IMG/VR virus record: IMGVR_UViG_2609459845_000023
Coordinates: 1 to 21,924 of that record
Source: a virus
Lineage: Duplodnaviria; Heunggongvirae; Uroviricota; Caudoviricetes
DNA: 21,924 nucleotides
Reading direction: 5' to 3' (one strand)
Under the pieces are notes generated by a model, which saw only the letters and a program-made list of their open reading frames with translations, was not told the origin of the DNA and did not search any database. A program made the translations under genes and the position numbers. Below, piece after piece: positions 1 to 17,083 of the stretch (the stretch's first letter is position 1; the number at the start of each line of letters is the position of its first letter).

Positions 1-1284
1 TTACTTCTTCGCCTCTGCAACCACTTTACTACCCACGCCGCGGTTATTGTATTCCCACATGCGGTTGTAGTTAGTGTCATTCAGATTGCGCTGTATTTCG
101 TCGTTATCATCTACGCTGCCGGTATTACCCGCAAACGGACGATTAGAGATCACCGCATCGGCCCACGGTTTAGCCGTGTTAAAACCTTCGTTGATGGCGC
201 TATCACGGATCACCACCTGACCGTTGGTATTGGCATCAACATCCAGCGAGCGGCCCAGTTGCGCCACACCATCACCGAAAGCATTGAAACGGCTGTTTAC
301 GGCGAGGAAACCGTAGTAAATGTTGGACAGCGTAGCCGGTGCAAACACATACGCTTCTTGCTGAGTACGTGAGTTCACCACGCGGAATTCGGTGTTATCG
401 AACACCACTGCGCCGCGACCAGAAACGATATCCACATCCCCTTCAATGTAGCTGTTGGTCACCAGCGTACGCGGCTGACGATTTGTTTCCAGACGGTTCT
501 GCACACCGCTGTTGGTGACAAAGAAGGTGTTCTGACGACCGAGAATGTTAACGTTGTTAATCTGTACCTGGTCACCATCAGTACGCAGTGCCACCGCCGG
601 ATGGTTACCTGCATCTACGCTATCGCCCAGCGTGTTTTCGATGGTCAGATTTTGCAGTTGCAGGCCATTGTTTTGTGACCAGAAGACCGCAGAGCAGAGA
701 ACACCGATACTGTCGCTGCGTTTGCTCTGGCAGCTATCGTACATATACCACGCTGGTTTACCTGGCATATATTTGCCGCGCGGGTTGACGTCGTGACGCC
801 AGTCGGCAGGGCTCATGCCACCATCAAGGGAAAGCCCAATCTTCACATCAATCGGTTTTTCACCTGTACCGTACAGAGTAATTCCACCCGGAGCGGCAGG
901 GACATATACCGTTCCCTGATACTCACCAGGCATCACGGCAATATACTGGCGCTTGTTGGTACGCTTGATAATTGCCGCATCTACCGCCGCCTGAATCGTG
1001 GTATGCGTTACACCTTGAGTGCCCGCCGGGCCGACAACAAAGTCAGGTTGCGCAGGCAGGGTAATCGGGGAAGGATTCCACGCTGCAGCACCTGGTGTCA
1101 GGGATGCAAAATAGTGTTGAGCATCGAAATTCTGCGCTTCTTTTGCCGACAGAATCGGGCGAGAAGAGGTACCAGGCGCGGTTTGATCAGAAGGACGTTG
1201 ATCGGGCGGGGTTGAGCTACAGGCGGTCAGCGTCACGCCAAAAGCCAATGCCAGCGCCAGACGGGAAACTGAAAATGTGTTCAC
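1..1284 (-). CDS. ybhC: host outer-membrane lipoprotein YbhC (pectinesterase-fold / acyl-CoA thioesterase family)
   Basis: 427-aa ORF from track; N-terminal lipoprotein signal MNTFSVSRLALALAFGVTLTAC (lipobox LTAC); recognised as E. coli YbhC, the gene flanking attB-lambda on the gal side; GC-normal composition. Confidence 0.85.
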   Translation of the reverse strand: MNTFSVSRLALALAFGVTLTACSSTPPDQRPSDQTAPGTSSRPILSAKEAQNFDAQHYFASLTPGAAAWNPSPITLPAQPDFVVGPAGTQGVTHTTIQAAVDAAIIKRTNKRQYIAVMPGEYQGTVYVPAAPGGITLYGTGEKPIDVKIGLSLDGGMSPADWRHDVNPRGKYMPGKPAWYMYDSCQSKRSDSIGVLCSAVFWSQNNGLQLQNLTIENTLGDSVDAGNHPAVALRTDGDQVQINNVNILGRQNTFFVTNSGVQNRLETNRQPRTLVTNSYIEGDVDIVSGRGAVVFDNTEFRVVNSRTQQEAYVFAPATLSNIYYGFLAVNSRFNAFGDGVAQLGRSLDVDANTNGQVVIRDSAINEGFNTAKPWADAVISNRPFAGNTGSVDDNDEIQRNLNDTNYNRMWEYNNRGVGSKVVAEAKK

Positions 1285-1330
1285 AGGTTGCTCCGGGCTA
1301 TGAAATAGAAAAATGAATCCGTTGAAGCCT

Positions 1331-1345
1331 GCTTTTTTATACTAA
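1331..1345. other. attL: attL core (O) of lambda site-specific recombination; lambda P' arm follows to about 1418
   Basis: exact 15-bp lambda common core GCTTTTTTATACTAA; right flank GTTGGCATTATAAAAAAGCATTGCTTATCAATTTGTTGCAACGAACAGGTCACTATCAGTCAAAATAAAATCATTATTT matches the lambda attP P' arm; left flank ...GTTGAAGCCT is the bacterial B arm. Confidence 0.92.
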
Positions 1346-1418
1346 GTTGGCATTATAAAAAAGCATTGCTTATCAATTTGTTGCAACGAACAGGTCACTA
1401 TCAGTCAAAATAAAATCA

Positions 1419-2489
1419 TTATTTGATTTCAATTTTGTCCCACTCCCTGCCTCTGTCATCACGATACTGTGATGCCATGGTGTCCGACTTATGCCCGAGA
1501 AGATGTTGAGCAAATTTATCGCTTATCTGCTTCTCATAGAGTCTTGCAGACAAACTGCGCAACTCGTGAAAGGTTGGCGGATCCCCTTCGAAGGAGAGAC
1601 CTGATGCTTTTCGTGCGCGCATAAAATACCTTGATACTGTGCCGGATGAAAGCGGTTCACGACGAGTAGATGCAATTATGGTTTCTCCGCCAAGAATCTT
1701 TTTGCATTTATCAAGTGTTTCCTTCATTGATATCCCGAGAGCATCAACATGCAATGTTGTTGGGATGGCAATTTTTACGCCTGTTTTGCTTTGCTCGACA
1801 TAAAGATATCCATCTACGATATCAGACCACTTCATTTCGCATAAATCACCAACTCGCTGCCCGGTAACAACAGCCAGTTCCATTGCAAGTCTAAGCCAAC
1901 ATGGTGATGATTCTGCTGCTTGATAAATTTTCAGGTATTCGTCAGCCGTAAGTCTTGATCTCCTTACCTCTGATTTTGCAGCGCGAGTGGCTGCGACCGG
2001 GTTTGTTGTTATATGGCCTTCAGCCATAGCCTCTCGGAATGCATCGCTCAGTGTTGATCTGATTAACTTGGCTGATGCCGCCTTTCCCTCGTCTATGTAT
2101 CCATTGAGCATTGCCGCAATTTCTTTTGTGGTGATGTCTTCAAGTGGAGCATCAGGCAGACCCCTCCTTATTGCTTTAATTTTGCTCATGTAATTTATGA
2201 GTGTCTTCTGCTTGATTCCTCTGCTGGCCAGGATTTTTTCGTAGCGATCAAGCCATGAATGTAACGTAACGGAATTATCACTGTTGATTCTCGCTGTCAG
2301 AGGCTTGTGTTTGTGTCCTGAAAATAACTCAATGTTGGCCTGTATAGCTTCAGTGATTGCGATTCGCCTGTCTCGGCCTAATCCAAACTCTTTACCCGTC
2401 CTTGGGTCCCTGTAGCAGTAATATCCATTGTTTCTTATATAAAGGTTAGGGGGTAAATCCCGGCGCTCATGACTTCGCCTTCTTCCCAT
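1419..2489 (-). CDS. int: lambda integrase (tyrosine recombinase)
   Basis: 356-aa ORF; MGRRRSHERRDLPPNLYIRNNGYYCYRDPRTGKEFGLGRD... matches lambda Int essentially full length; 3' end 74 bp from att core as in lambda. Confidence 0.97.
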   Translation of the reverse strand: MGRRRSHERRDLPPNLYIRNNGYYCYRDPRTGKEFGLGRDRRIAITEAIQANIELFSGHKHKPLTARINSDNSVTLHSWLDRYEKILASRGIKQKTLINYMSKIKAIRRGLPDAPLEDITTKEIAAMLNGYIDEGKAASAKLIRSTLSDAFREAMAEGHITTNPVAATRAAKSEVRRSRLTADEYLKIYQAAESSPCWLRLAMELAVVTGQRVGDLCEMKWSDIVDGYLYVEQSKTGVKIAIPTTLHVDALGISMKETLDKCKKILGGETIIASTRREPLSSGTVSRYFMRARKASGLSFEGDPPTFHELRSLSARLYEKQISDKFAQHLLGHKSDTMASQYRDDRGREWDKIEIK

Positions 2490-2685
2490 TTCTGATCCTC
2501 TTCAAAAGGCTACCTGTTACTGGTCGATTTAAGTCAACCTTTACCGCTGATTCGTGGAACAGATATTCTCTTCCATCCTTAACCGGAGGAGGGAATATCC
2601 TGCATTCGCGCACCCATCGACGAACTGTTTCAAGGCTTCTTGGGCGTCGCTGGCGAGCGTTCCACTCCTGAAGTGTCAAGTACAT
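2467..2685 (-). CDS. xis: lambda excisionase
   Basis: 72-aa ORF MYLTLQEWNARQRRPRSLETVRRWVRECRIFPPPVKDGREYLFHESAVKVDLNRP..., recognised as lambda Xis; overlaps int start as in lambda. Confidence 0.95.
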   Translation of the reverse strand: MYLTLQEWNARQRRPRSLETVRRWVRECRIFPPPVKDGREYLFHESAVKVDLNRPVTGSLLKRIRNGKKAKS

Positions 2686-2710
2686 CGCAAAGTCTCCGCA
2701 ATTACACGCA

Positions 2711-2733
2711 AGAAAAAACCGCCATCAGGCGGC
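2711..2733 (-). terminator. putative intrinsic terminator (hairpin CCGCC-TGAT-GGCGG + U6) between orf55 and xis
   Basis: minus-strand read GCCGCCTGATGGCGGTTTTTTCT; overlaps the stop codon of the 55-aa ORF. Confidence 0.45.
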
Positions 2734-2892
2734 TTGGTGTTCTTTCAGTTCTTCAATTCGAATATTGGTTATGTCTGCATGTGCTATCTGCGCCCATATC
2801 ATCCAGTGGTCATAGCAGTCATTGATGTTCTCTGCTTCGATAACTCTGTTGAATGGTTCTCCATTCCATTCACCTGTGACTCGGAAGTGCAT
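2725..2892 (-). CDS. hypothetical small protein (55 aa), xis-proximal
   Basis: hand-translated ORF MHFRVTGEWNGEPFNRVIEAENINDCYDHWMIWAQIAHADITNIRIEELKEHQAA; below the 60-aa track cutoff; followed by a terminator-like hairpin; no recognisable family. Confidence 0.4.
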   Translation of the reverse strand: MHFRVTGEWNGEPFNRVIEAENINDCYDHWMIWAQIAHADITNIRIEELKEHQAA

Positions 2893-2902
2893 TTATCATC
2901 TC

Positions 2903-2930
2903 CATAAAACAAAACTCGCCGTAGCGAGTT
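2903..2930 (-). terminator. putative intrinsic terminator downstream of the 142-aa gene
   Basis: minus-strand hairpin AACTCGC-TACG-GCGAGTT followed by TTTGTTTTAT. Confidence 0.45.
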
Positions 2931-2974
2931 CAGATATAATTTCCACCAAAGGCAGTAGTTGCTGATGCTAAGAA

Positions 2975-3403
2975 TTATTCAATATCTATTCCTGTAATAT
3001 CTTTTATCTTTTTCCTTGCAAAGCCTTTTGCTAGTGATTTTGAAACACTTATTAGTGTACTAATTCCCTCATCCTTAAAGTTTGTTTTTATAGTTTGCCA
3101 GACCTCCTTTTGACGCAAGTCAGCAATAAAATCATGCCCTCTTGCTGTCAACCTCAGTGGTACTTCGATCCAACTATATCCAACACCTTCCCCTAACTCG
3201 TTGGACATTATATGACCGAACCCAGGTTTTCCATCAACCCTGACTATTAATTCGTAGTCGCATAATAATCGCATATGGAAAATAAAATTTTGGTCATATC
3301 TATTAAAGCCATTATCCTCTAGTTCACTAAGCATCGTGTCAGGGCCATGAGTTTTTTCGAATGCGATAAGTAGATCTTTTAGATATTGCTGGTCTAATTT
3401 CAT
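2975..3403 (-). CDS. hypothetical protein (142 aa), AT-rich accessory gene
   Basis: track ORF; strong SD GGAGG 7 nt upstream of ATG; AT-rich by eye relative to the lambda core genes; no family recognised. Confidence 0.7.
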   Translation of the reverse strand: MKLDQQYLKDLLIAFEKTHGPDTMLSELEDNGFNRYDQNFIFHMRLLCDYELIVRVDGKPGFGHIMSNELGEGVGYSWIEVPLRLTARGHDFIADLRQKEVWQTIKTNFKDEGISTLISVSKSLAKGFARKKIKDITGIDIE

Positions 3404-3431
3404 TGCCGCCTCCGTGACATGTCACAGAGAT

Positions 3432-3770
3432 TTATATCATTAATTTTGTTTCGTGCCAGCCTTTGGTCACCCAGCATTGTGAGTCACCATTACACGGGCA
3501 TGAATTAACAGGAACTCTCTCGCCGCACTTACCGCAACGTTTTCTGCTGATCGATTTTATACGCCAGCGCACACGTGCATCATCCTGGCGGCTCAGTAAC
3601 GCGATGTACTCACCAAACTCGTAAGGCGCATGCCTGAAGCGGCGCGTGGCTCAGTTACGATCCAGCATTTCAATTTCCTGAGCATCAAGTACAAGCTCCA
3701 GCTTACGCATACCGGATGATGCTTGCTTGGCTCTCTGATCGACTTTGCGCTCTGCTGATGATTTAGCCAT
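3432..3770 (-). pseudogene. Cys-rich (zinc-ribbon-like) small protein gene interrupted by an in-frame TGA at 3651..3653
   Basis: ATG at 3770 with SD AGGAAAAG; 39 codons (MAKSSAERKVDQRAKQASSGMRKLELVLDAQEIEMLDRN), then TGA, then 72 further in-frame sense codons (ATRRFRHAPYEFGEYIALLSRQDDARVRWRIKSISRKRCGKCGERVPVNSCPCNGDSQCWVTKGWHETKLMI) with no internal restart ATG. Confidence 0.5.
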
Positions 3771-3963
3771 TCTGCTTTTCCTGCATTAGGAGAAAGACAA
3801 TCATGGCGGCGCGGATACTTCCGGTATCTTTTTACTCGATATTACCCTTCAATGGCACATACAAGAAGAGAGCCATCAACAGGAGTGAGTGAGGAATCGA
3901 CAACCAGCAACGCTTAATTATCTATAGTGTCGTATTTGCTTCATAAAATATGGCGAATAACAC

Positions 3964-3995
3964 AAAGCCCGCAGCAGCTCATTGTGCGGGCTTTT
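3964..3995. terminator. hairpin (AGCCCGCA / TGCGGGCT) with T-rich flanks, candidate terminator downstream of the 204-aa gene
   Basis: 8-bp perfect stem about 70 nt beyond the stop of the 4064..4678 gene; loop is long (11 nt), so weak. Confidence 0.3.
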
Positions 3996-4063
3996 CTTAT
4001 ACATACTTCCTAGAGATAATTCTATGGAGGCATTAAATTAATACTGTCATTGGTAATATCATA

Positions 4064-4678
4064 TTATCTAAAAGTCTTTCCACTTTTAACGTCTAGGTAT
4101 ATTCTGTTCGACAACGTCATTCCTCCGCAATATGTGAAATAGATGTTTTTCCCCTTATTGCTTGATGCCATCCACCCTCCGATTTCCTTAAAGTCGCTTT
4201 CCGTGCAGACCCCTTCGTTTATTAACTTCCTAGCTGCCGAAGAAAACTCTTTTTTGTATATACGGTAGTCATCAGATCCTTTGATTAAAGTATCATCTCC
4301 GCTCGCATTTTCAGCAGGATCTGATGGCCTTTCACTGCTAAGATCACTAAGTTTAACCCATTCTGAAAACTTGCCATTGACGATTCCGTTTTTTCTTGTG
4401 CAGGATTTATTACCTTCTTTAATATATTCGCTTTCCCCTCCCACACATGAGGCTGAATATGGCTCAGTTATACGAACCCATTCACCTTTTTTTTCTAGAA
4501 AATCTACGCCTTCCCTGAAAAATAGTTTCCCAGCCACTCCACATTTACTTGAAGGGCAGGTATGTCTTTCCGTTCGATCAACAACAACCCAAAGTCTTGA
4601 TTCATTTTTTGCCATTGCCGATGGTATTTGAGATGAGACAATTAACGTAAGCCCTAAAATTAGTATTGATTTTTTCAT
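4064..4678 (-). CDS. secreted/periplasmic Cys-containing hypothetical protein (204 aa)
   Basis: track ORF; N-terminal signal peptide MKKSILILGLTLIVSSQIPSAMA; SD AAGGA 8 nt upstream; AT-rich. Confidence 0.75.
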   Translation of the reverse strand: MKKSILILGLTLIVSSQIPSAMAKNESRLWVVVDRTERHTCPSSKCGVAGKLFFREGVDFLEKKGEWVRITEPYSASCVGGESEYIKEGNKSCTRKNGIVNGKFSEWVKLSDLSSERPSDPAENASGDDTLIKGSDDYRIYKKEFSSAARKLINEGVCTESDFKEIGGWMASSNKGKNIYFTYCGGMTLSNRIYLDVKSGKTFR

Positions 4679-4814
4679 TGTAATTTCCTTTTACTTTTTA
4701 CAAAGCGTTTAATCATGGCTGATTATCTTTAAGCGTAGTAACAGCCTTGTGCGAAACATGTTACCAAATCGCCATTTCAGTGTATCCGCAGTTAGGCTGC
4801 CACTTCAAGGATTC

Positions 4815-5228
4815 CTAATTACATGGTACGTAAGCGTAAAATCCCGTTGGTTGTCGGGTAATAACTCTGATCAAATCTCCCTTGTCTTTTGCTCTTACGT
4901 ATGCAGCTCTTGTGTATTCAACCCAGGCCTCCAGTTCAGCAATACGCTTACTTCCATCCGAGATAACACCTTCTACTCACGCTGCTCGTTGAGTTTTGAT
5001 TTTTGCTGTCTCCAGCTCAACACGCAGTTTCCTCACCGTTAGCGCAATATCCTCGTTCTCCTGGTCGCGGCGTTTGATGTACTGCTGGTTTCTTTCCCGT
5101 TCATCCAGCAGTGTCAGCACAATCGATGGTGTTACCAGCTCATGGAAAAGGTCCGCGTCAAATCCCCAGTTGTCATGCATTGCCTGCTCTGCCGCTTCAC
5201 GCAGTGCCTGAGAGTGAATTACGCTCAC
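4815..5228 (-). pseudogene. hypothetical coiled-coil protein gene with in-frame TGA at 4977..4979 (83 codons + TGA + 53 codons)
   Basis: track ORF 4977..5228 (MSVIHSQALREAAEQ...AKIKTQRAA) continues in the same frame past TGA as VEGVISDGSKRIAELEAWVEYTRAAYVRAKDKGDLIRVITRQPTGFYAYVPCN to a TAG at 4815..4817. Confidence 0.5.
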
Positions 5229-5446
5229 TTCGAACCTCTCTGTTTACTGATAAGTTCCAGATCCTCCTGGCAACTTGCACAAGTCCGACAACCCTGAACG
5301 GCCAGGCGTCTTCGTTCATCTATCGGATCGCCACACTCACAACAATGAGTGGCAGATATAGCCTGGTGGTTCAGGCGGCGCATTTTTATTGCTGTGTTGC
5401 GCTGTAATTCTTCAATTTCTGATGCTGAATCAATGATGTCTGCCAT
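5225..5446 (-). CDS. TraR/DksA-family C4 zinc-finger protein (73 aa)
   Basis: track ORF with CxxC...CxxC spacing (CCECGDPIDERRRLAVQGCRTCASC) typical of phage TraR/DksA-type zinc fingers; stop overlaps the start of the downstream ORF. Confidence 0.7.
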   Translation of the reverse strand: MADIIDSASEIEELQRNTAIKMRRLNHQAISATHCCECGDPIDERRRLAVQGCRTCASCQEDLELISKQRGSK

Positions 5447-5495
5447 CTTTCATTAATCCCTGAATTGTTGGTTAATACGCTTGAGGGTGAATGCG

Positions 5496-5522
5496 AATAA
5501 TAAAAAAGGAGCCTGTAGCTCC
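5496..5522 (-). terminator. intrinsic terminator (GGAGC-TACAG-GCTCC + U-run)
   Basis: minus-strand read GGAGCTACAGGCTCCTTTTTTATTATT immediately downstream of the 5545..5760 ORF. Confidence 0.55.
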
Positions 5523-5544
5523 ATGATGATTTTGTTTTTCATGC

Positions 5545-5760
5545 TCACCGTTCCTTAAAGACGCCGTTTAACATGCCGATCGCCAGGCTTAAATGAGTCG
5601 GTGTGAATCCCATCAGCGTTACCGTTTCGCGGTGCTTCTTCAGTACGCTACGGCAAATGTCATCGACGTTTTTATCCGGAAACTGCTGTCTGGCTTTTTT
5701 GATTTCAGAATTAGCCTGACGGGCAATACTGCGAAGGGCGTTTTCTTGCTGAGGTGTCAT
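5545..5760 (-). CDS. hypothetical protein (71 aa from MTPQQENALRS; alternative upstream start at 5826 gives 93 aa)
   Basis: track ORF 5545..5826; the internal ATG at 5760 forms an ATGA overlap with the stop of a coupled 27-codon ORF; start uncertain. Confidence 0.5.
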   Translation of the reverse strand: MTPQQENALRSIARQANSEIKKARQQFPDKNVDDICRSVLKKHRETVTLMGFTPTHLSLAIGMLNGVFKER

Positions 5761-5840
5761 TGAACAAGTCCCATGTCGGCAAGCATAAGCACACAGAATA
5801 TGAAGCCCGCTGCCAGAAAAATGCATTCAGTGGTTGTCAT
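5757..5840 (-). CDS. putative 27-aa hydrophobic micro-protein (MTTTECIFLAAGFIFCVLMLADMGLVQ)
   Basis: hand-translated; ATGA overlaps at both ends (with the orf63-like stop and with the MTPQQ start); single hydrophobic stretch; alternative reading is the N-terminal extension of the 93-aa ORF. Confidence 0.25.
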   Translation of the reverse strand: MTTTECIFLAAGFIFCVLMLADMGLVQ

Positions 5841-6028
5841 ACCTGGTCTCTCTCATCTGCTTCTGCTTTCGCCACCATCATTTCCAGCTTTTGTGAAAGG
5901 GATGCGGTTAACGTATGAAATTCTTCGTCTGTTTCTACCGGTATTGGCACAAACCTGACTCCAATTTGAGCGAGGCTATGTGCCATCTCAATGCTCGTTC
6001 TTAACTCAACAGGAGATGCTTTGTGCAT
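5837..6028 (-). CDS. small early-left protein, lambda orf63-like (63 aa)
   Basis: track ORF; SD GGGGAG 6 nt upstream; size and position (between exo and xis) match lambda orf63; sequence identity to lambda not confirmed from memory. Confidence 0.5.
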   Translation of the reverse strand: MHKASPVELRTSIEMAHSLAQIGVRFVPIPVETDEEFHTLTASLSQKLEMMVAKAEADERDQV

Positions 6029-6183
6029 ACAGCTCCCCGTTTATTATTTATCTCCTCAGCCAGCCGCTGTGCTTTCAGGGGATTTCGGGTAACAGAAAGG
6101 CCGGGAAATACCCAGCCTCGCTTTGTAACGGAGTAGACGAAAGTGATCGCGCCTACCCGGATATTATCGTGAGGATGCGTCAT
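6001..6183 (-). CDS. small early-left protein, lambda orf60a-like (60 aa from second Met)
   Basis: track ORF 6001..6189; ATG at 6183 overlaps the exo stop (ATGA), giving 60 aa as in lambda orf60a. Confidence 0.45.
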
Positions 6184-6860
6184 CGCCATTGCTCCCCAAA
6201 TACAAAACCAATTTCAGCCAGTGCCTCGTCCATTTTTTCGATGAACTCCGGCACCATCTCGTCAAAACTCGCCATGTAATTTTCATCCCGCTCAACCACG
6301 ACATAATGCAGGCCTTCACGCTTCATTCGTGGGTCATAGTTGGCAAAGTACCAGGCATCTTTTCGCGTCACCCACATGCTGTACTGCACCTGGGCCATGT
6401 AAGCCGACTTTATGGCCTCGAAACCACCGAGCCGGAACTTCATGAAATCCCGGGAGGTAAACGGGCATTTCAGCTCAAGGCCGTTGCCGTCACTGCATAA
6501 ACCATCGGGAGAGCAGGCGGTGCGCATACTTTCGTCGCGATAGATGATCGGGGATTCAGTAACATTCACGCCGGAAGTAAACTCAAACAGGGCTCTGGCG
6601 TCATTCTCGTACTTTTTTCCCCAGGCCAGCGCCTTAGCGTTAACTTCCGGAGCCACACCGGTACAAATCTCAGCCAGCAGGGTGTGAAAGTAGGACATTT
6701 TCATGTCAGGCCACTTTTTACCGGAGCGGGGTTTTGCTATCACATTGTGAACTTCTGAAGCCGTGATGACGCCGAGTCGTAATTTGTTCCACGCATCATC
6801 TCCCTGTTCGACAGCTCTCACGTCGATCCCGGTACGCTGCAGGATAATGTCCGGTGTCAT
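6180..6860 (-). CDS. exo: lambda exonuclease (Red-alpha)
   Basis: 226-aa [67 protein letters not shown]..., recognised as lambda Exo. Confidence 0.97.
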
Positions 6861-7642
6861 GCAGCCACCTTCTGCTCAGAGGCTTTCTGTTTCAGGAATC
6901 CAAGAGCTTTCACTGCTTCGGCCTGTGTCAGTTCTGACGATGCGCGAATGTCGCGGCGAAATATCTGGGAACAGAGCGGCAATAAGTCGTCATCCCATGT
7001 TTTATCCAGGGCAATCAGCAGAGTGTTAATCTCCTGCATGGTTTCATCGTTAACCGGAGTGATGTCGCGTTCCGGCTGACGTTCTGCAGTGTATGCGGTA
7101 TTTTCGACAATGCGCTCGGCTTCATCCTTGTCATAGATACCAGCAAATCCGAAGGCCAGACGGGCACACTGAATCATGGCTTTATGACGCAACATCCGTT
7201 TGGGATGCGACTGCCACGGCCCCGTGATTTCTCTGCCTTCGCGGGTTTTGAATGGTTCGCGGCGGCATTCATCCATCCACTCGGTAACGCAGATCGGATG
7301 ATTACGGTCCTTGCGGTAAATCCGGCATGTGCAGGATTCATTGTCCTGCTCAAAGTCCATGCCATCAAACTGCTGGTTTTCATTGATGATACGGGACCAG
7401 CCATCAACGCCCACCACCGGAACGATGCCGTTCTGCTTATCAGGGAAGGCGTAAATTTCTTTCGTCCACGGATTAAGGCCGTACTGGTTGGCGACGATCA
7501 ACAATGCGATGAACTGCGCATCGCTGGCATCACCTTTAAATGCCGTCTGGCGAAGAGTGGTGATCAGTTCCTGTGGGTCGACAGAATCCATGCCGACACG
7601 TTCAGCCAGCTTCCCTGCCAGCGTTGCGAGTGCTGTACTCAT
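6857..7642 (-). CDS. bet: lambda Bet single-strand annealing protein (Red-beta)
   Basis: 261-aa [69 protein letters not shown]..., recognised as lambda Bet. Confidence 0.97.
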
Positions 7643-7647
7643 CCGTT

Positions 7648-8064
7648 TTATACCTCTGAATCAATATCAACCTGATGGTGAGCAATGGTTTCAACCATGT
7701 ACCGGATGTGTTCTGCCATGCGCTCCTGAAACTCAACATCGTCATCAAACGCACGGGTAATGGCTTTTTTGCTGGCCCCGTGGCGTTGCAAATGATCGAT
7801 GCATAGCGATTCAAACAGGTGCTGGGGCAGGCCTTTTTCCATGTCGTCTGCCAGTTCTGCCTCTTTCTCTTCACGGGCGATCTGCTGGTAGTGACGCGCC
7901 CAGCTCTGAGCCTCAAGACGATCCTGAATGTAATAAGCGTTCATGGCTGAACTCCTGAAATAGCTGTGAAAATATCGTCCGCGAAATGCCGGGCTGATTA
8001 GGAAAACAGGGAAGGGGGGTAGTGAATGCTTTTGCTTGATCTCAGTTTCAGTATTAATATCCAT
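7648..8064 (-). CDS. gam: lambda Gam (RecBCD inhibitor)
   Basis: 138-aa [77 protein letters not shown]..., recognised as lambda Gam. Confidence 0.95.
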
Positions 8065-8162
8065 TTTTTATAAGCGTCGACGGCCTCACGAAACATCTTT
8101 TCATCGCCAATAAAAGTGGCGATAGTGAATTTAGTCTGGATAGCCATAAGTGTTTGATCCAT
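7998..8162 (-). CDS. kil: host-killing / cell-division inhibitor Kil
   Basis: internal start of track ORF 7998..8288 at [39 protein letters not shown]...; start overlaps the cIII 3' end by 32 nt as in lambda; exact C-terminus and length versus lambda uncertain. Confidence 0.8.
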
Positions 8163-8295
8163 TTTTTGGGACTCCTGGCTGATTAAGTATGTCGATAAGG
8201 CGTTTCCATCCGTCACGTAATTTACGGGTGATTCGTTCAAGTAAAGATTCGGAAGGGCAGCCAGCAACAGGCCACCCTGCAATGGCATATTGCAT
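8131..8295 (-). CDS. cIII: lambda CIII (FtsH inhibitor, stabilises CII)
   Basis: hand-translated 54-aa [57 protein letters not shown]; SD TAAGGAG upstream; below the track length cutoff. Confidence 0.9.
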   Translation of the reverse strand: MQYAIAGWPVAGCPSESLLERITRKLRDGWKRLIDILNQPGVPKNGSNTYGYPD

Positions 8296-8367
8296 GGTGT
8301 GCTCCTTATTTATACATAACGAAAAACGCCTCGAGTGAAGCGTTATTGGTATGCGGTAACGCCGCGC

Positions 8368-8736
8368 TCAGGCGGCTTTGATAGTCATATCATCTGGATC
8401 AAATATTCCTGATGTATCGATATCGGTAATTCTTATTCCTTCGCTACCATCCATTGGAGGCCATCCTTCCTGACCATTTCCATCATTCCAGTCGAACTCA
8501 CACACAACACCATATGCATTTAAGTCGCTTGAAATTGCTATAAGCAGAGCATGTTGCGCCAGCATGATTAATACAGCATTTAATACAGAGCCGTGTTTAT
8601 TGAGTCGGTATTCAGAGTCTGACCAGAAATTATTAATCTGGTGAAGTTTTTCCTCTGTCATTACGTCATGGTCGATTTCAATTTCTATTGATGCTTTCCA
8701 GTCGTAATCAATGATGTATTTTTTGATGTTTGACAT
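8368..8736 (-). CDS. ea10: lambda Ea10 (early single-strand-binding-like protein)
   Basis: 122-aa ORF MSNIKKYIIDYDWKASIEIEIDHDVMTEEKLHQINNFWSDSEYRLNKHGS...; same length and same 73-nt spacing from cIII as in lambda. Confidence 0.85.
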   Translation of the reverse strand: MSNIKKYIIDYDWKASIEIEIDHDVMTEEKLHQINNFWSDSEYRLNKHGSVLNAVLIMLAQHALLIAISSDLNAYGVVCEFDWNDGNGQEGWPPMDGSEGIRITDIDTSGIFDPDDMTIKAA

Positions 8737-8754
8737 CTGTTCATATCCTCACAG

Positions 8755-8782
8755 ATAAAAAATCGCCCTCACACTGGAGGGC
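8755..8782 (-). terminator. intrinsic terminator (tL2-region) upstream of ea10
   Basis: minus-strand hairpin GCCCTC-CAGTGT-GAGGGC followed by GATTTTTTAT. Confidence 0.45.
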
Positions 8783-8844
8783 AAAGAAGATTTCCAATAA
8801 TCAGAACAAGTCGACTCCTGTTTAGTTACGAGCGACATTGCTCC

Positions 8845-8872
8845 GTGTATTCACTCGTTGGAATGAATACAC
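8845..8872. repeat. 9-bp inverted repeat GTGTATTCA / TGAATACAC with 10-nt spacer
   Basis: read directly; lies between two terminator hairpins in the gap between the ral-slot gene and ea10. Confidence 0.5.
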
Positions 8873-8905
8873 AGTGCAGTGTTTATTCTGTTGTTTGCGT
8901 GAAAA

Positions 8906-8927
8906 TGAAACCCGCCTGAGCGGGTTA
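8906..8927 (-). terminator. intrinsic terminator overlapping the stop of the ral-slot gene
   Basis: minus-strand hairpin AACCCGC-TCAG-GCGGGTT followed by TCATTTTC. Confidence 0.5.
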
Positions 8928-9653
8928 TGACCACTTTTTGTTTGGATTTCGTTGGTGAGCGTGGTTTACAGGATTATTTGATATACCCCATAACTCTGAC
9001 TCGCTTATCTCTACACGAGAGAAAGACCTGCTTTCTTTCAGTTCTTTTATAAACCTAGAACCTACGATGACATCTATTGTCCCAGAAAGTTCTTGTAAAA
9101 GATCTTTGTTTTTTCTGAGGAAGAAAACATCTTCTTTATATTTAATTTTTACATAGAATTTATTCTGTATTTTTAATATATCAAAGCATGGCAGATATCT
9201 ATATCCCTCATGCTTTCGCCACTGCTTAACAATTATAACATCTCTTTCATTTACTGCATTAATCAGCCCAAGACCAAGTATAGGTATGAATATTCTATTG
9301 TCTGCCGAAAGCGTACAATTATTACCACCAGGCAAATATGTATAAATCATGTCGGAATTTTTATTCGCATCAACGAATGCACGTAAGAATCGTACATATT
9401 TTTGCCATCCGTTTATACCAAATTTACCATATAAGTATTCTTTATTTGTTAGAAGAAAACTATTTGTATCAGGAGCCTTATCTACAGACCTGTCGATAAG
9501 ATCTCCAACTACGTTTACAAAGTCAAAGACAGAGTTTAATAAGAACAATTGTCTTTCAGTCGGGCGAATTTCAATTATGTAGCCTGGATGAAGACGATAT
9601 TGCATCTGCTTACGAAGTATGCTGAACGCTTGGGTCCGGGCATCTGAAAGCAA
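8925..9653 (-). CDS. hypothetical AT-rich protein occupying the lambda ral/sieB slot (242 aa from TTG at 9653; 226 aa from first ATG at 9605)
   Basis: track ORF; body 8930..9540 is strongly AT-rich by eye while the 5' ~100 nt is GC-normal; no family recognised; does not match lambda Ral. Confidence 0.65.
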   Translation of the reverse strand: MLSDARTQAFSILRKQMQYRLHPGYIIEIRPTERQLFLLNSVFDFVNVVGDLIDRSVDKAPDTNSFLLTNKEYLYGKFGINGWQKYVRFLRAFVDANKNSDMIYTYLPGGNNCTLSADNRIFIPILGLGLINAVNERDVIIVKQWRKHEGYRYLPCFDILKIQNKFYVKIKYKEDVFFLRKNKDLLQELSGTIDVIVGSRFIKELKESRSFSRVEISESELWGISNNPVNHAHQRNPNKKWS

Positions 9654-9803
9654 CTTCCTGTCGCCATCGCCGTGAGCATTGTTTCTAATAAAACTGATAT
9701 AATTTGCTAATTTTTCAGCCTCTTTTTTGTGTTTTTTTTCGCTCTGATGCTGAGTCTATTGGTTTTGGTATGGACTTGTAATCAATTTTCTTCATTACGT
9801 ACC

Positions 9804-10127
9804 TCATGCCAATGGAATGGATTTCCCTTTAACCTTTTGTCTTCCTTGACAAGTTATACCGAACTCACTTGGCTTGCTATACCAAACTCGAAGATTCTTG
9901 CGCTCAATACGTTGCAGGTTGCTTTCAATCTGTTCGTGGTATTCAGCCAGCACCGTAAGGTCTATCGGATTCAGTGCGCTTTCTACTCGTGATTTCGGTT
10001 TGCGATTCAGCGAGAGAATAGGGCGGTTAACTGGTTTTGCGCTTACCCCAACCAACAGGGGATTTGCTGCTTTCCATTGAGCCTGTTTCTCTGCGCGACG
10101 TTCGCGGCGGCGTGTTTGTGCATCCAT
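9804..10127 (-). CDS. N: lambda N transcription antiterminator
   Basis: internal start of track ORF at MDAQTRRRERRAEKQAQWKAANPLLVGVSAKPVNRPILSLNRKPKSRVESALNPIDLTVLAEYH... (107 aa), recognised as lambda N. Confidence 0.95.
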   Translation of the reverse strand: MDAQTRRRERRAEKQAQWKAANPLLVGVSAKPVNRPILSLNRKPKSRVESALNPIDLTVLAEYHEQIESNLQRIERKNLRVWYSKPSEFGITCQGRQKVKGKSIPLA

Positions 10128-10285
10128 CTGGATTCTCTTGTCAGTTAGCTTTGGTGGTGTGTGTGAGTCGTAGTCCTGAACGAAAACACCCCACGATTGG
10201 CTCATTTGCAGCTAATCCGGATTCGCACTTCCGGCCAATGCTTCGTTTCGTATCACACACCCCAAAGCCTTCTGCTTTGAATGCT

Positions 10286-10317
10286 GCCCTTCTTCAGGGC
10301 TTAATTTTTAAGAGCAT
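10286..10317 (-). promoter_or_regulatory. nutL: nutL (boxB GCCCTGAAGAAGGGC; boxA-like TGCTCTTAA)
   Basis: minus-strand read GATGCTCTTAAAAATTAAGCCCTGAAGAAGGGCAGCA; boxB identical to lambda nutL, boxA differs at its first base from my recollection of lambda (CGCTCTTA). Confidence 0.85.
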
Positions 10318-10354
10318 CACCTTCAATGGTGGTCAGTGCGTCCTGCTGATGGTT

Positions 10355-10430
10355 TAAAATTACAAAAAAGATTGTATGTTGTAAACAAGAAATATTGTAA
10401 GAAAGGGGCATGAAAAACAAACTCCATTGT
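10355..10430 (-). promoter_or_regulatory. 434-type OL operators (three ACAA-N6-TTGT sites) with pL
   Basis: ACAAAAAAGATTGT (10362..10375), ACAAGAAATATTGT (10385..10398), ACAAACTCCATTGT (10417..10430); leftward promoter-like hexamers TTGTTT...TGTAAT overlap them. Confidence 0.75.
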
Positions 10431-10480
10431 TTTTAAACGGAAAATAGTTTGTTTTTTGGTTATCGAGATTGAGGTGGGGA

Positions 10481-11836
<1,356 letters not shown>

Positions 11837-11844
11837 GACATTCC

Positions 11845-11876
11845 CGCTCTTACACATCCCAGCCCTGAAAAAGGGC
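11845..11876 (+). promoter_or_regulatory. nutR: nutR (boxA CGCTCTTAC, boxB GCCCTGAAAAAGGGC)
   Basis: read directly: CGCTCTTACACATCCCAGCCCTGAAAAAGGGC, matching lambda nutR. Confidence 0.9.
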
Positions 11877-11894
11877 ATCAAATTAAACCACACC

Positions 11895-11930
11895 TATGGT
11901 GTATGCATTTATTTGCATACATTCAATCAA
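11895..11930 (+). terminator. tR1 region (hairpin GTATGCA-TTTATT-TGCATAC)
   Basis: sequence ATGGTGTATGCATTTATTTGCATACATTCAATCAATTG recognised as the lambda tR1 region between nutR and cII. Confidence 0.6.
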
Positions 11931-11955
11931 TTGTTATCTAAGGAAATACTTACAT

Positions 11956-12249
11956 ATGGTTCGTGCAAACAAACGCAACGAGGCTCTACGAATCGAGAGT
12001 GCGTTGCTTAACAAAATCGCAATGCTTGGAACTGAGAAGACAGCGGAAGCTGTGGGCGTTGATAAGTCGCAGATCAGCAGGTGGAAGAGGGACTGGATTC
12101 CAAAGTTCTCAATGCTGCTTGCTGTTCTTGAATGGGGGGTCGTTGACGACGACATGGCTCGATTGGCGCGACAAGTTGCTGCGATTCTCACCAATAAAAA
12201 ACGCCCGGCGGCAACCGAGCGTTCTGAACAAATCCAGATGGAGTTCTGA
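11956..12249 (+). CDS. cII: lambda CII transcriptional activator
   Basis: internal start of track ORF at MVRANKRNEALRIESALLNKIAMLGTEKTAEAVGVDKSQISRWKRDWIPKFSMLLAVLEWGVVDDDMARLARQVAAILTNKKRPAATERSEQIQMEF (97 aa). Confidence 0.95.
   Translation: MVRANKRNEALRIESALLNKIAMLGTEKTAEAVGVDKSQISRWKRDWIPKFSMLLAVLEWGVVDDDMARLARQVAAILTNKKRPAATERSEQIQMEF
11965..11978 (-). promoter_or_regulatory. CII-binding repeat TTGC-N6-TTGC of pRE
   Basis: minus-strand read TTGCGTTTGTTTGC inside the 5' end of cII, as in lambda pRE. Confidence 0.7.
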
Positions 12250-12271
12250 GGTCATTACTGGATCTATCAAC
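12195..12271 (-). ncRNA. oop: oop antisense RNA (77 nt) with its intrinsic terminator
   Basis: minus-strand read GTTGATAGATCCAGTAATGACCTCAGAACTCCATCTGGATTTGTTCAGAACGCTCGGTTGCCGCCGGGCGTTTTTTATT matches lambda oop; antisense to the cII 3' end. Confidence 0.8.
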
Positions 12272-12281
12272 AGGAGTCATT

Positions 12282-13181
12282 ATGACAAATACAGCAAAAA
12301 TACTCAACTTCGGCAGAGGTAACTTTGCCGGACAGGAGCGTAATGTGGCAGATCTCGATGATGGTTACGCCAGACTATCAAATATGCTGCTTGAGGCTTA
12401 TTCGGGCGCAGATCTGACCAAGCGACAGTTTAAAGTGCTGCTTGCCATTCTGCGTAAAACCTATGGGTGGAATAAACCAATGGACAGAATCACCGATTCT
12501 CAACTTAGCGAGATTACAAAGTTACCCGTCAAACGGTGCAATGAAGCCAAGTTAGAACTCGTCAGAATGAATATTATCAAGCAGCAAGGCGGCATGTTTG
12601 GACCAAATAAAAACATCTCAGAATGGTGCATCCCTCAAAACGAGGGAAAATCCCCTAAAACGAGGGATAAAACATCCCTCAAATTGGGGGATTGCTATCC
12701 CTCAAAACAGGGGGACACAAAAGACACTATTACAAAAGAAAAAAGAAAAGATTATTCGTCAGAGAATTCTGGCGAATCCTCTGACCAGCCAGAAAACGAC
12801 CTTTCTGTGGTGAAACCGGATGCTGCAATTCAGAGCGGCAGCAAGTGGGGGACAGCAGAAGACCTGACCGCCGCAGAGTGGATGTTTGACATGGTGAAGA
12901 CTATCGCACCATCAGCCAGAAAACCGAATTTTGCTGGGTGGGCTAACGATATCCGCCTGATGCGTGAACGTGACGGACGTAACCACCGTGACATGTGCGT
13001 GCTGTTCCGCTGGGCATGCCAGGACAACTTCTGGTCCGGTAACGTGCTGAGCCCGGCCAAACTCCGCGATAAGTGGACCCAACTCGAAATCAACCGTAAC
13101 AAGCAACAGGCAGGCATGACAGCCAGCAAACCAAAACTCGACCTGACAAACACAGACTGGATTTACGGGGTGGATCTATGA
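12282..13181 (+). CDS. O: lambda O replication initiator
   Basis: 299-aa ORF MTNTAKILNFGRGNFAGQERNVADLDDGYARLSNMLLEAYSGADLTKRQFKVLLAILRKTYGWNKPMDRITDSQLSEITKLPVKRCNEAKLELVRMNIIKQQGGMF... Confidence 0.97.
   Translation: MTNTAKILNFGRGNFAGQERNVADLDDGYARLSNMLLEAYSGADLTKRQFKVLLAILRKTYGWNKPMDRITDSQLSEITKLPVKRCNEAKLELVRMNIIKQQGGMFGPNKNISEWCIPQNEGKSPKTRDKTSLKLGDCYPSKQGDTKDTITKEKRKDYSSENSGESSDQPENDLSVVKPDAAIQSGSKWGTAEDLTAAEWMFDMVKTIAPSARKPNFAGWANDIRLMRERDGRNHRDMCVLFRWACQDNFWSGNVLSPAKLRDKWTQLEINRNKQQAGMTASKPKLDLTNTDWIYGVDL
12629..12760 (+). repeat. ori: ori-lambda: four iterons (ATCCCTCAAAACGAGGGA-like) plus adjacent AT-rich region
   Basis: TCCCTCAAAACGAGGGA / TCCCCTAAAACGAGGGA / TCCCTCAAATTGGGGGA / TCCCTCAAAACAGGGGGA followed by ACAAAAGACACTATTACAAAAGAAAAAAGAAAAGATTATT, inside O. 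Confidence 0.9.
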
Positions 13182-13879
13182 AAAACATCGCCGCACAGAT
13201 GGTTAACTTTGACCGTGAGCAGATGCGTCGGATCGCCAACAACATGCCGGAACAGTACGACGAAAAGCCGCAGGTACAGCAGGTAGCGCAGATCATCAAC
13301 GGTGTGTTCAGCCAGTTACTGGCAACTTTCCCGGCGAGCCTGGCTAACCGTGACCAGAACGAAGTGAACGAAATCCGTCGCCAGTGGGTTCTGGCTTTTC
13401 GGGAAAACGGGATCACCACGATGGAACAGGTTAACGCAGGAATGCGCGTAGCCCGTCGGCAGAATCGACCATTTCTGCCATCACCCGGGCAGTTTGTTGC
13501 ATGGTGCCGGGAAGAAGCATCCGTTACCGCCGGACTGCCAAACGTCAGCGAGCTGGTTGATATGGTTTACGAGTATTGCCGGAAGCGAGGCCTGTATCCG
13601 GATGCGGAGTCTTATCCGTGGAAATCAAACGCGCACTACTGGCTGGTTACCAACCTGTATCAGAACATGCGGGCCAATGCGCTTACTGATGCGGAATTAC
13701 GCCGTAAGGCCGCAGATGAGCTTGTCCATATGACTGCGAGAATTAACCGTGGTGAGGCGATCCCTGAACCAGTAAAACAACTTCCTGTCATGGGCGGTAG
13801 ACCTCTAAATCGTGCACAGGCTCTGGCGAAGATCGCAGAAATCAAAGCTAAGTTCGGACTGAAAGGAGCAAGTGTATGA
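13178..13879 (+). CDS. P: lambda P (DnaB helicase loader)
   Basis: 233-aa ORF MKNIAAQMVNFDREQMRRIANNMPEQYDEKPQVQQVAQIINGVFSQLLATFPASLANRDQNEVNEIRRQWVLAF... Confidence 0.97.
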   Translation: MKNIAAQMVNFDREQMRRIANNMPEQYDEKPQVQQVAQIINGVFSQLLATFPASLANRDQNEVNEIRRQWVLAFRENGITTMEQVNAGMRVARRQNRPFLPSPGQFVAWCREEASVTAGLPNVSELVDMVYEYCRKRGLYPDAESYPWKSNAHYWLVTNLYQNMRANALTDAELRRKAADELVHMTARINRGEAIPEPVKQLPVMGGRPLNRAQALAKIAEIKAKFGLKGASV

Positions 13880-14166
13880 CGGGCAAAGAGGCAATTATTC
13901 ATTACCTGGGGACGCATAATAGCTTCTGTGCGCCGGACGTTGCCGCGCTAACAGGCGCAACAGTAACCAGCATAAATCAGGCCGCGGCTAAAATGGCACG
14001 GGCAGGTCTTCTGGTTATCGAAGGTAAGGTCTGGCGAACGGTGTATTACCGATTTGCTACCAGGGAAGAACGGGAAGGAAAGATGAGCACGAACCTGATT
14101 TTTAAGGAGTGTCGCCAGAGTGCCGCGATGAAACGGGTATTGGCAGTATATGGAGTTAAAAGATGA
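13876..14166 (+). CDS. ren: lambda Ren
   Basis: 96-aa ORF MTGKEAIIHYLGTHNSFCAPDVAALTGATVTSINQAAAKMARAGLLVIEGKVWRTVYYRFATREEREGK... Confidence 0.9.
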   Translation: MTGKEAIIHYLGTHNSFCAPDVAALTGATVTSINQAAAKMARAGLLVIEGKVWRTVYYRFATREEREGKMSTNLIFKECRQSAAMKRVLAVYGVKR

Positions 14167-14190
14167 CCATCTACATCACTGAGCTAATAA

Positions 14191-14223
14191 CAGGCCTGCT
14201 GGTAATCGCAGGCCTTTTTATTT
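14191..14223 (+). terminator. tR2 intrinsic terminator between ren and ninB
   Basis: hairpin AGGCCTGC-TGGTAATC-GCAGGCCT followed by TTTTTATTT. Confidence 0.8.
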
Positions 14224-14239
14224 GGGGGAGAGGGAAGTC

Positions 14240-14680
14240 ATGAAAAAACTAACCTTTGAAATTCGATCTCCAGCACATCAGCAAAACGCTATTCACGCGG
14301 TACAGCAAATTCTTCCAGACCCAACCAAACCAATCGTAGTAACCATTCAGGAACGCAACCGCAGCTTAGACCAGAATCGAAAGCTTTGGGCTTGCCTTGG
14401 TGACGTCTCTCGTCAGGTTGAATGGCATGGTCGCTGGCTGGATGCAGAAAGCTGGAAGTGTGTGTTTACCGCAGCATTAAAGCAGCAGGATGTTGTTCCT
14501 AACCTTGCCGGGAATGGCTTTGTGGTAATAGGCCAGTCAACCAGCAGGATGCGTGTAAACGAATTTGCGGAGCTATTAGAGCTTATACAGGCATTCGGTA
14601 CAGAGCGTGGCGTTAAGTGGTCAGACGAAGCGCGACTGGCTCTCGAATGGAAAGCGCGATGGGGAGATCGGGCTGCATGA
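14240..14680 (+). CDS. ninB: NinB (Orf recombination mediator, nin146)
   Basis: 146 aa from MKKLTFEIRSPAHQQNAIHAVQQILPDPTKPIVVTIQERNRSLDQNRKLWACLGDVSRQVEWHGRWLDAESWKCVFTAALKQQD..., recognised as lambda NinB. Confidence 0.93.
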   Translation: MKKLTFEIRSPAHQQNAIHAVQQILPDPTKPIVVTIQERNRSLDQNRKLWACLGDVSRQVEWHGRWLDAESWKCVFTAALKQQDVVPNLAGNGFVVIGQSTSRMRVNEFAELLELIQAFGTERGVKWSDEARLALEWKARWGDRAA

Positions 14681-15205
14681 CTATCAAATCAAATACGCCA
14701 GCACACGACAAGGACTGCTGGCAAACGCCGCTTTGGCTTTTTGATGCACTGGATATTGAGTTTGGATTCTGGCTGGATTCGGCAGCGAGCGACAAAAAAT
14801 GCTCTGTGCGCTCACTGGTTAACTGAGGCCGACGACGCGCTAAATTCTGAGTGGATAAGCCACGGTGCAATCTGGAATAACCCACCGTACAGCAATATCA
14901 GGCCGTGGGTGGAAAAAGCCGCTGAGCAGTGCATACAACAGCGACAGACGGTAGTTATGCTTGTGCCAGAGGATATGTCAGTCGGATGGTTCAGCAAGGC
15001 TCTGGAGAGTGTCGACGAAGTTCGCATTATCACTGATGGACGGATTAATTTTATCGAACCATCGACAGGGCTGGAGAAGAAGGGAAACAGCAAAGGCTCC
15101 ATGCTGCTGATTTGGCGACCGTTCATCAGTCCTCGACGGATGTTTACTACCGTATCCAAAGCGGCATTGATGGCGATCGGGCAGGGCGTCAGGAGGGCGG
15201 CATGA
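14677..15205 (+). pseudogene. phage Dam-family DNA N6-adenine methyltransferase, frameshifted in an A6 run (14794..14799)
   Basis: two track ORFs in different frames (14617..14826 and 14741..15205) join into one protein, MTIKSNTPAHDKDCWQTPLWLFDALDIEFGFWLDSAASD / KNALCAHWLTEADDALNSEWISHGAIWNNPPYSNI..., if one A is removed; NPPY motif present; start overlaps the ninB stop (ATGA). Confidence 0.75.
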
Positions 15206-15354
15206 GGCGACAGCGACGAAGTTTCACCGACATCATCTGCGAAAACTGCAAATACCTTCCAACGAAACGCTCCAGAAATAAACGCAAGCCAATCCCAAAA
15301 GAATCTGACGTAAAAATCTTCAATTACACAGCTCACCTGTGGGATATCCGGTAG
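15202..15354 (+). CDS. ninE: NinE (50 aa here; lambda NinE is 60 aa)
   Basis: [50 protein letters not shown]; SD AGGAGGG upstream; start overlaps the Dam stop; C-terminus shorter than lambda nin60. Confidence 0.85.
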
Positions 15355-15380
15355 CTAAGATATCGTGCGAGGAAATGACA

Positions 15381-15722
15381 ATGGATTATTCACAGTTAAG
15401 TGATTTTGAAATTAACAGAATGGTAGGAGACATAATTTTTAAAGGCCTTTGGGCAAGTAAACCGGAAACATCAGGGAATAACACCAACAAATGGTATTAC
15501 GGAAATGCTTATACAACTTTTGAGCCATTAAATCATTTGCCTGACTACTGCAATGATCCGAGCGCTTCATGGCCGATTATTGAGAAATACAGGATTTCTA
15601 TCTTAGACCAGTTAACTGAATGGTGTGTGGATGCAAAAGGCGTAAGCCCAATATTTGATACCAGACCTCTCCGCGCCGCCATGATTGTCTTTCTCCTGAT
15701 GCAGGAGGCCAATAATGCTTAG
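15381..15722 (+). CDS. hypothetical protein (113 aa from [15 protein letters not shown]) immediately upstream of the holin
   Basis: track ORF 15339..15722; likely start at ATG 15381 with GAGG 8 nt upstream; not Q-like (only 2 Cys, no zinc-finger motif). Confidence 0.5.
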
Positions 15723-15975
15723 CCCATCTCAATCCCTTCAATACCTGAAAGAAAGCGTCGAGCGGGTATTAACGTGCGCTATGGACAAAATCAGAGAATG
15801 GTTCAGTTACAGCTTCGGAGGACTGACTGCGATGGGTGGCATTCTCTCCCTGAATGACTGGGCTGTCATCATTGGTATTCTTTGTACTGTCGGCACATTT
15901 GGCATCAACTGGTACTACAAGCGCAAAGAGCGCGAGGACAGATTGAATGGCAATGTCACCGGCACTACGAAATAG
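15715..15975 (+). CDS. putative holin (86 aa)
   Basis: track ORF; hydrophobic core [34 protein letters not shown] followed by charged tail [12 protein letters not shown]; positioned directly upstream of the endolysin. Confidence 0.6.
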
Positions 15976-16450: not shown

Positions 16451-16538
16451 GCATGATTTGCTTTTTCATGGCAGCGTTGCTCGCATTGAATGGCAACGAT
16501 GCGTGGCCGTGGTTTCTGGCCGTTGGGGTGTTGATGTC

Positions 16539-16997: not shown

Positions 16998-17028
16998 TTT
17001 TTTTGCAAATCACAAAGTCAATTTAATG

Positions 17029-17083
17029 AGCCTCGCGATGCGGGGCTTTTTGCAATAAATGCGTACCGCAACGCATGTTTTTT
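17029..17083 (+). terminator. tandem intrinsic terminators ending the rightward operon
   Basis: hairpin AGCCTCGC-GAT-GCGGGGCT + TTTTT (about 17029..17051), then ATGCGT-ACCGCA-ACGCAT + GTTTTTT (17059..17083). Confidence 0.6.

Follow-up and report, generated by a model that had tools for sequence, protein, structure and literature searches.

The stretch of DNA analyzed here, referred to as the window, comprises the 21,924 nucleotides of the viral record IMGVR_UViG_2609459845_000023 and is 100% identical to contig 36 (JNRH01000036.1) of the assembly GCA_000704585.1. It begins in E. coli host DNA, with positions 1–1349 matching MG1655 positions 805,998–807,346 at 99.85% identity (2 mismatches). 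This segment holds ybhC (1–1284, minus strand, 427 aa, assigned from its open reading frame and the MG1655 match), the host gene that borders attB-lambda on its gal side, followed by the B arm (1285–1330, plus strand), that is, the host DNA leading from ybhC to the core, which is identical to the left flank of attB in MG1655. The 15-bp lambda common core GCTTTTTTATACTAA follows at 1331–1345 (plus strand); the match is exact and is the sole one in the window even when up to two mismatches are allowed, a tolerance at which 0.07 core matches are expected in shuffled sequence. The core corresponds to lambda 27724–27738 (NC_001416), and the 170 positions 1331–1500, which run from the core through the P' arm into the 3' end of int, are 100% identical to lambda 27724–27893. 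To the left of the core, the window is unrelated to the lambda P arm and carries the ybhC-attB DNA of MG1655; immediately after the core, MG1655 reads CTTGAGCG (B'), whereas the window reads GTTGGCAT (P').

Going by the established lambda att layout, the 7-bp overlap TTTATAC lies at 1336–1342. The P' arm (1346–1422, plus strand) is 100% identical to lambda 27739–27815 and contains, with names and consensus sequences as established for lambda attP and positions read off the sequence, the IHF site H' (TATCAATTTGTTG, 1371–1383), together with three tandem arm-type Int sites: P'1 (AGGTCACTAT, 1392–1401), P'2 (CAGTCAAAAT, 1402–1411), and P'3 (AAATCATTAT, 1413–1422), which overlaps the int stop codon. 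That stop codon starts 74 positions past the last base of the core (73 intervening bp). The earlier note on this DNA had singled out the location of int only 74 bp from the core; the distance is correct, but the arrangement is no peculiarity, being lambda's normal layout with the same spacing (core 27724–27738, int 27812–28882).

Every feature of a lambda attL that was looked for is present (core, P' arm, B arm, and the cognate int and xis), and 1331–1422 is a genuine, textbook lambda-type attL (B-O-P'). It arose by recombination between the attP of a lambda-Int phage and the E. coli attB between ybhC and ybhB, which left host B arm, core, and phage P' arm with int and xis directly behind them, the very arrangement of a lambda lysogen. 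The earlier note's view that the element was integrated by lambda Int at attB-lambda beside ybhC is thus well founded, given the core, the identity of the P' arm, the ybhC flank, and int/xis, and its claim that the left boundary of the prophage is fixed precisely holds to the base. The likeness to the attL of a K-12 lambda lysogen extends to the 15-bp core, the P' arm (lambda 27739–27893) with H' and P'1–P'3, the B arm at ybhC, the core-to-int spacing, and the Int and Xis proteins (each 98.6% identical). In contrast to a lambda lysogen, the prophage in the window has another immunity region after the first 5.4 kb, is without Q and without structural genes, and has no lambda attR partner on its contig.

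The lambda-type tyrosine integrase gene int (1419–2489, minus strand) encodes 356 aa, of which 351 are identical to lambda Int, and an identical gene in L025 (L numbers denote loci fetched for comparison) has the Pfam domains Arm-DNA-bind_1/Phage_int_M/Phage_int_SAM_1/Phage_integrase. The adjoining xis (2467–2685, minus strand, 72 aa, Pfam Exc) specifies an excisionase identical to lambda Xis at 71 of 72 residues, and the rest of the left arm (2686–5375, minus strand) carries a 55-aa ORF, a DUF2513 gene, a 204-aa ORF, an Ea22-like gene, and a TraR/DksA gene. Over positions 1–5522, the window shows 0–2 mismatches to the ybhC prophages in the chromosome-scale records L029, L035, L032, and L037, and L030 is 100% identical over 1–5130, where it has a deletion; from 5523 on, these same ybhC prophages differ from the window by ~3%. 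The 204-aa ORF is present in 3,268 blocks of the contig index. Judged by these matches, the left arm (1331 to ~5375–5522) is that of a prophage which is very common at the ybhC/ybhB site and in most cases defective. The defective prophage of E. coli ATCC 8739 (NC_010468.1, 3,139,0xx–3,148,2xx), for example, has the host site, int, xis, DUF2513 gene, and 204-aa ORF in common with the window; Sp3 of O157:H7 Sakai occupies the same ybhC/ybhB site. Such prophages end in a lambda-like P arm and core beside ybhB, with 9–12 kb from attL to attR where both ends were read, whereas the window runs into a remnant of sbcB type.

The passage from one to the other takes place in a switch interval at 5376–5522, 147 bp that are identical in both parents: the last difference from the sbcB type is at 5375 and the first difference from the ybhC type is at 5523. 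The interval falls within exo-bet-region DNA common to the two parents, ~97% identical with exact stretches of up to ~150 bp (147 bp here). Left of 4930, sbcB-native copies of the remnant are unrelated to the window, and 23 sites differ in 4937–5375. From 5376 to the end of the window, the sbcB-resident copies L023, L047, L050 (closed chromosome CP170296.1), and L048 differ from it by 3–5 SNPs. In CP170296.1, the remnant lies between sbcB and dacD, has its own 392-aa integrase, and retains both cognate cores ~22.4 kb apart; the native frame sbcB-int392...UmuD-attR-dacD is found in JMGU01000058.1, CP170296.1, and GCA_035608275.1. On the basis of these near-identities, 5523–21924 (plus strand) is assigned to a defective lambdoid prophage native to sbcB/dacD, and what begins at 5376–5522 is another element, a ~20-kb remnant native to sbcB|dacD that is without Q, head, and tail genes. 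It has retained exo-bet-gam-kil-cIII, N, cI/cro/cII, O, P, ren, nin, and lysis genes, as well as a KilA-N gene, and its right end carries Tfa, acyltransferase, GH43-like, and UmuD-like genes.

Two internal deletion joints account for the missing genes. The first, at 15780–15781, lacks 2,509 bp relative to CP170296.1: window positions 14046–15781 correspond to L050 1–1736 and 15780–21924 to L050 4246–10390, so that everything from ninF to Q is gone. At the corresponding position, L027, L047, and L050 encode NinF, YbcO, RusA, NinH, and Q, and it is ninF, ybcO, rusA, ninH, and Q that the 2,509-bp deletion removed. Because both Q and the 674-bp Q-to-holin spacer of CP170296.1 have been deleted, the lysis genes in the window are left without either; a late promoter would be expected in that spacer. 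At the second joint (18153–18161), where the element has lost every head and tail gene, the beginning of an HNH endonuclease gene runs into the C-terminal portion of a 227-aa tail-fibre gene. On its left, 18060–18161 matches the starts of HNH genes; on its right, 18153–21924 corresponds to L002 6629–10399, downstream of a Mu-like baseplate. The ORF that spans the joint (18078–18275; a second ORF at the joint is at 18178–18513) is present on 20 contigs from many unrelated samples, so that the remnant represents a widespread lineage, and all of the joint-ORF contigs that extend rightwards reach dacD. L012 and L014 show a further variant, in which 16551 is joined to 18059.

Lambda-like similarity to known phages and E. 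coli genomes ends at ~17–18 kb, and no record in a search of phages and complete E. coli genomes covers ≥80% of the window. Among 5,426 complete RefSeq E. coli genomes and 50,697 phage records, nothing closely matches the last 3.8 kb except for its final 66 bp, the stretch without a near match among complete E. coli genomes and phages being 18160–21858. The final 66 bp are the end of the UmuD-like S24 peptidase gene (21526–21924, plus strand), the last gene before an sbcB-type attR; in phage HK140, the homologue of this gene adjoins the annotated attP. Contigs that encode the UmuD-like protein have the gene order tail genes, Tfa, acyltransferase, GH43-like, UmuD-like, dacD-sbmC-yeeA-yeeX; in all of the places displayed by two look-ups (8 and 10, from 24 and 21 contigs read), the UmuD-like gene is the direct neighbour of dacD, and ybhB/bioA is absent from beside it in all contigs encoding the protein that were examined.

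Positions 18513–21924 form a cargo cassette made up of Tfa, Acyl_transf_3 (18964–20037, minus strand), the 428-aa GH43-like gene (20060–21346, minus strand), and the UmuD-like S24 peptidase gene, the last of which occurs in ~80 index blocks and stands behind at least two different myovirus tail modules. The minus-strand ORFs at 19–21 kb had also been considered as candidates for ybhB/bioA, in the style of an engineered cro-bioA deletion; they are the Acyl_transf_3 and GH43-like genes, and the candidate was rejected. A bio-region reading of the right end is likewise excluded by the finding that the MG1655 bio region matches nothing in the window past 1349.

The contig on which the window lies extends another 99 bp to the right and breaks off with the final base of the sbcB-type core CGTAATCGTGAAA. 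These 99 bp, read on the overlapping contigs L019 and L020 (same assembly, 100% identical to window 8238–21924), consist of 86 bp identical to the P side of HK140 attP followed by the 13-bp core. Past the core, L019 carries the first 48 nt of MG1655 sbcB as their reverse complement, followed by the sbcB-dacD spacer, dacD, sbmC, yeeA, and yeeX, a flank that is 98.4% identical to MG1655 and inverted relative to the ybhC side. A three-way alignment of L019, HK140 attP, and MG1655 places the common core 87–99 bp past the window, and the right end is a genuine attR of the integrase family of HK140/2851, which integrates in sbcB. The sbcB-integrating lambdoid phages and prophages include HK140, mEp234, HK544, and the Stx2c phage 2851/1717 type. 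The window together with the next 99 bp shares with HK140 the UmuD-like gene and the attP sequence up to the core, after which come the sbcB 5' end and dacD; the window differs from these phages in having the lambda int arm where they have their cognate integrase arm (int392, AlpA-like, ea8.5). The cognate 392-aa integrase (Arm-DNA-bind_3) and an attL at sbcB are thus absent from the window, and both are present in L023, L047, L048, and L063.

The sbcB-type core itself lies in approximately codons 12–16 of sbcB (L019 13774–13786; L047 13900, minus strand; L022 3153), and the P' side of the phage encodes an alternative sbcB N terminus (MTDTDKQPTFLFHDYE...), so that integration appears to keep the sbcB reading frame intact.

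With a lambda attL at one end and the attR of an sbcB-integrating element just past the other, the window is a composite of two prophages. We infer that the join across 5376–5522 is an assembly chimera, and put the probability of this at roughly 70%. A short-read assembly would have run from the ybhC arm through the common exo-bet repeat into the single sbcB remnant. In the assembly itself, the same 16.4-kb block (5594 to 22023) is found on four contigs of GCA_000704585.1 with three different left ends: the ybhC arm on contig 36, a dsdC-dsdX-dsdA arm on contig 28 (JNRH01000028.1), and none on contigs 66 and 72, which start at 5594 and run into dacD (the loci read from these four contigs are L019, L020, L024–L026, L061, L062, and L065). 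Contigs 28 and 36 share their right-hand end to the base, both breaking off where the sbcB-type core finishes. From its left end, contig 28 follows the dsdC prophage of a sister strain (JNRW01000017.1) only up to ~6034, in window coordinates, beyond which it agrees with the block at every base; in the sister, the true dsdC prophage has its own exo-bet-gam region, 95.7% identical, and a different immunity region. A block contig of the sister assembly (JNRW01000063.1) has ybhC-type alleles at its left tip (5523–5993) and switches to the block type within a 40-bp identical stretch at 5994–6033, unlike the switch point in the window. Finally, the hybrid joint is found in none of 5,426 complete E. 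coli genomes (best match 98.7% over 4900–6100), and of the 16 index contigs that carry the block-type exo allele, those with the lambda arm come only from GCA_000704585.1, whereas the sbcB-int392 arm is attached to it in several independent assemblies.

One block on four contigs with three left ends, two contigs that end at the same base, a contig that leaves the sister's dsdC prophage for the block, a different switch point in the sister assembly, and a lambda arm joined to the block solely in one redundant assembly are the marks of near-identical repeats that have been collapsed and re-used by a short-read assembler, and hence argue for a chimera. As a separate observation, the shared stop at the att core suggests that the reads branch there, e.g., because of excised circles or tandem copies. 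Three points count against an artefact. A pair-aware assembler should normally resolve a 147-bp repeat. The int392 arm is joined to the block on no block-carrying contig of GCA_000704585.1, which would also fit a real exchange of arms. In addition, ybhC (minus strand) is followed by dacD on the plus strand, and dacD is on the minus strand in MG1655, which is the orientation expected of a viable inversion.

These points lead to an alternative that we consider rather unlikely: that the join is real and arose by crossing over within 5376–5522 between the ybhC prophage and an oppositely oriented sbcB remnant, inverting ~1.27 Mb of the chromosome. In MG1655 coordinates, the inverted segment would reach from 807 kb to 2,083 kb and include the terminus, and the lambda attR would lie at the end of the reciprocal hybrid, sbcB-int392...attR-ybhB. 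On this reading, a natural E. coli isolate would carry a hybrid prophage remnant with a lambda attL at one end and, at the other, a non-cognate attR of sbcB type, permanently locked in because neither integrase could excise it. In support of an inversion, the deposited contig is continuous, the flanks are oriented as in a viable inversion and not as in a lethal deletion, the shared DNA, ~97% identical and in places exact for as many as 147 bp, provides a substrate, and the int392 arm is, as noted, missing from the block contigs; what such an event calls for, two inverted prophages that share long near-identical DNA, is indeed present here. There is precedent in E. coli O157:H7, in which inversions between homologous, oppositely oriented lambdoid prophages that share kilobases of near-identical DNA are described (PMC10925052, citing Iguchi et al., 2006, and Fitzgerald et al., 2021) and in which ybhC and sbcB are standard prophage sites. 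The O157:H7 inversions were verified by long reads or PCR at both reciprocal junctions; here, there is one junction, in a redundant short-read assembly. The literature otherwise provided general background on insertion sites and prophage-mediated inversions, and nothing was found in it on the source strain.

What tells against an inversion is that in this one assembly the block is attached to yet another host flank, the third (dsdC), since both joins are impossible for a single-copy block. Contigs 36 and 28 do not go on into dacD but end with the sbcB-type core, which is not what a simple inversion predicts; the sister assembly switches at another point; and neither other assemblies nor complete genomes provide an independent replicate. 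A homology search with the Ea22-like protein of the int392 arm found no exact representative of the sbcB/int392 arm of the source strain, and thus no reciprocal junction. The presence of the block on four contigs with different left ends also speaks against taking the inversion as proven.

The earlier note had expected attR beyond the right edge of the window, to be found by searching downstream for a second core with the lambda P arm, and had held that the lack of a second core would indicate a deletion that removed attR. We scanned the window and the fetched loci for the core at ≤2 mismatches and used BLAST with the lambda P arm. Across the window and the 4.75 kb that follow it, there is neither a second lambda core (≤2 mismatches) nor a lambda P arm, and both are likewise absent from L019, L020, L023, L024, and L026. 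The scan does find attR in two positive controls: in ATCC 8739, a second core with an 87% identical P arm is located beside ybhB, 9.15 kb from attL, and in L037, the attR has a 14/15 core (ACTTTTTTATACTAA, 1811–1825) with an intact overlap region and a P arm (1826–2023) 85% identical to that of lambda. It should be noted that an exact-core search would wrongly have called the L037 attR missing.

The expected attR is thus not where it was predicted to be, its place being taken by an HK140-type P arm, CGTAATCGTGAAA, the sbcB 5' end, and dacD: as the right part is a different prophage with an sbcB-type attR, the lambda attR does not lie beyond the right edge, and the absence of a downstream core is no evidence that attR was deleted. 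To place attR just past the window is wrong whether the join is a chimera or an inversion. In the former case, the lambda attR should be on another contig, where it would close the real ybhC prophage beside ybhB in the manner of ATCC 8739; in the latter, it would be ~1.27 Mb away and inverted. That a single intact lambda-type prophage fills the window, with an attR (P arm and GCTTTTTTATACTAA) past the right edge at ybhB, is highly improbable: attL, int, and xis are canonical and relatives at the ybhC site do carry a lambda attR, but the 99 bp and 4.75 kb past the window are those of the sbcB-dacD-sbmC-yeeA-yeeX locus, the UmuD-like end gene adjoins dacD everywhere shown, the element is without Q and all morphogenesis genes, and no cognate attR completes it. 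Loss of attR and the ybhB side of a ybhC prophage by deletion can be given hardly any credence either, although the lack of a second lambda core downstream and the two internal deletions would be in keeping with it, since the right end is not a scar but a complete, cognate-looking attR that follows HK140 attP base for base and then the MG1655 sbcB 5' end, since a deletion from ybhC to dacD would have cost ~1.27 Mb of essential chromosome, and since the flanks are in inverted, not direct, orientation.

All of the parts found here are of known kinds (lambda site-specific recombination, sbcB-integrating lambdoids, defective remnants, and chimeras or inversions), and the biological import is small: a lambda attL beside ybhC is a textbook site, and the two prophages are both commonly resident in E. 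coli. The case does call for caution in that, even behind an exact attL, the sequence that follows on a draft contig may come from another prophage. The near-identical recombination-gene modules shared among lambdoid phages can mislead short-read assemblers or, more rarely, give rise to real inversions, and with chimeric or hybrid contigs, prophage boundaries, calls of intact or defective prophages, and predictions of excision competence can all be wrong. Were the join to prove true, it would add one more prophage-mediated chromosome inversion and a remnant excisable by neither integrase.

Two smaller features of the sbcB remnant may be mentioned. A 242-aa ORF at 8925–9653 (minus strand), between the N-like gene and DUF2528/cIII, has no Pfam match and is found on only 8 index contigs. 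In the nin region, at ~14680–15210, a Dam-like methyltransferase is split into 49-aa and 98-aa parts, in place of the single 175-aa gene found in L034 and other loci, and is probably a pseudogene.
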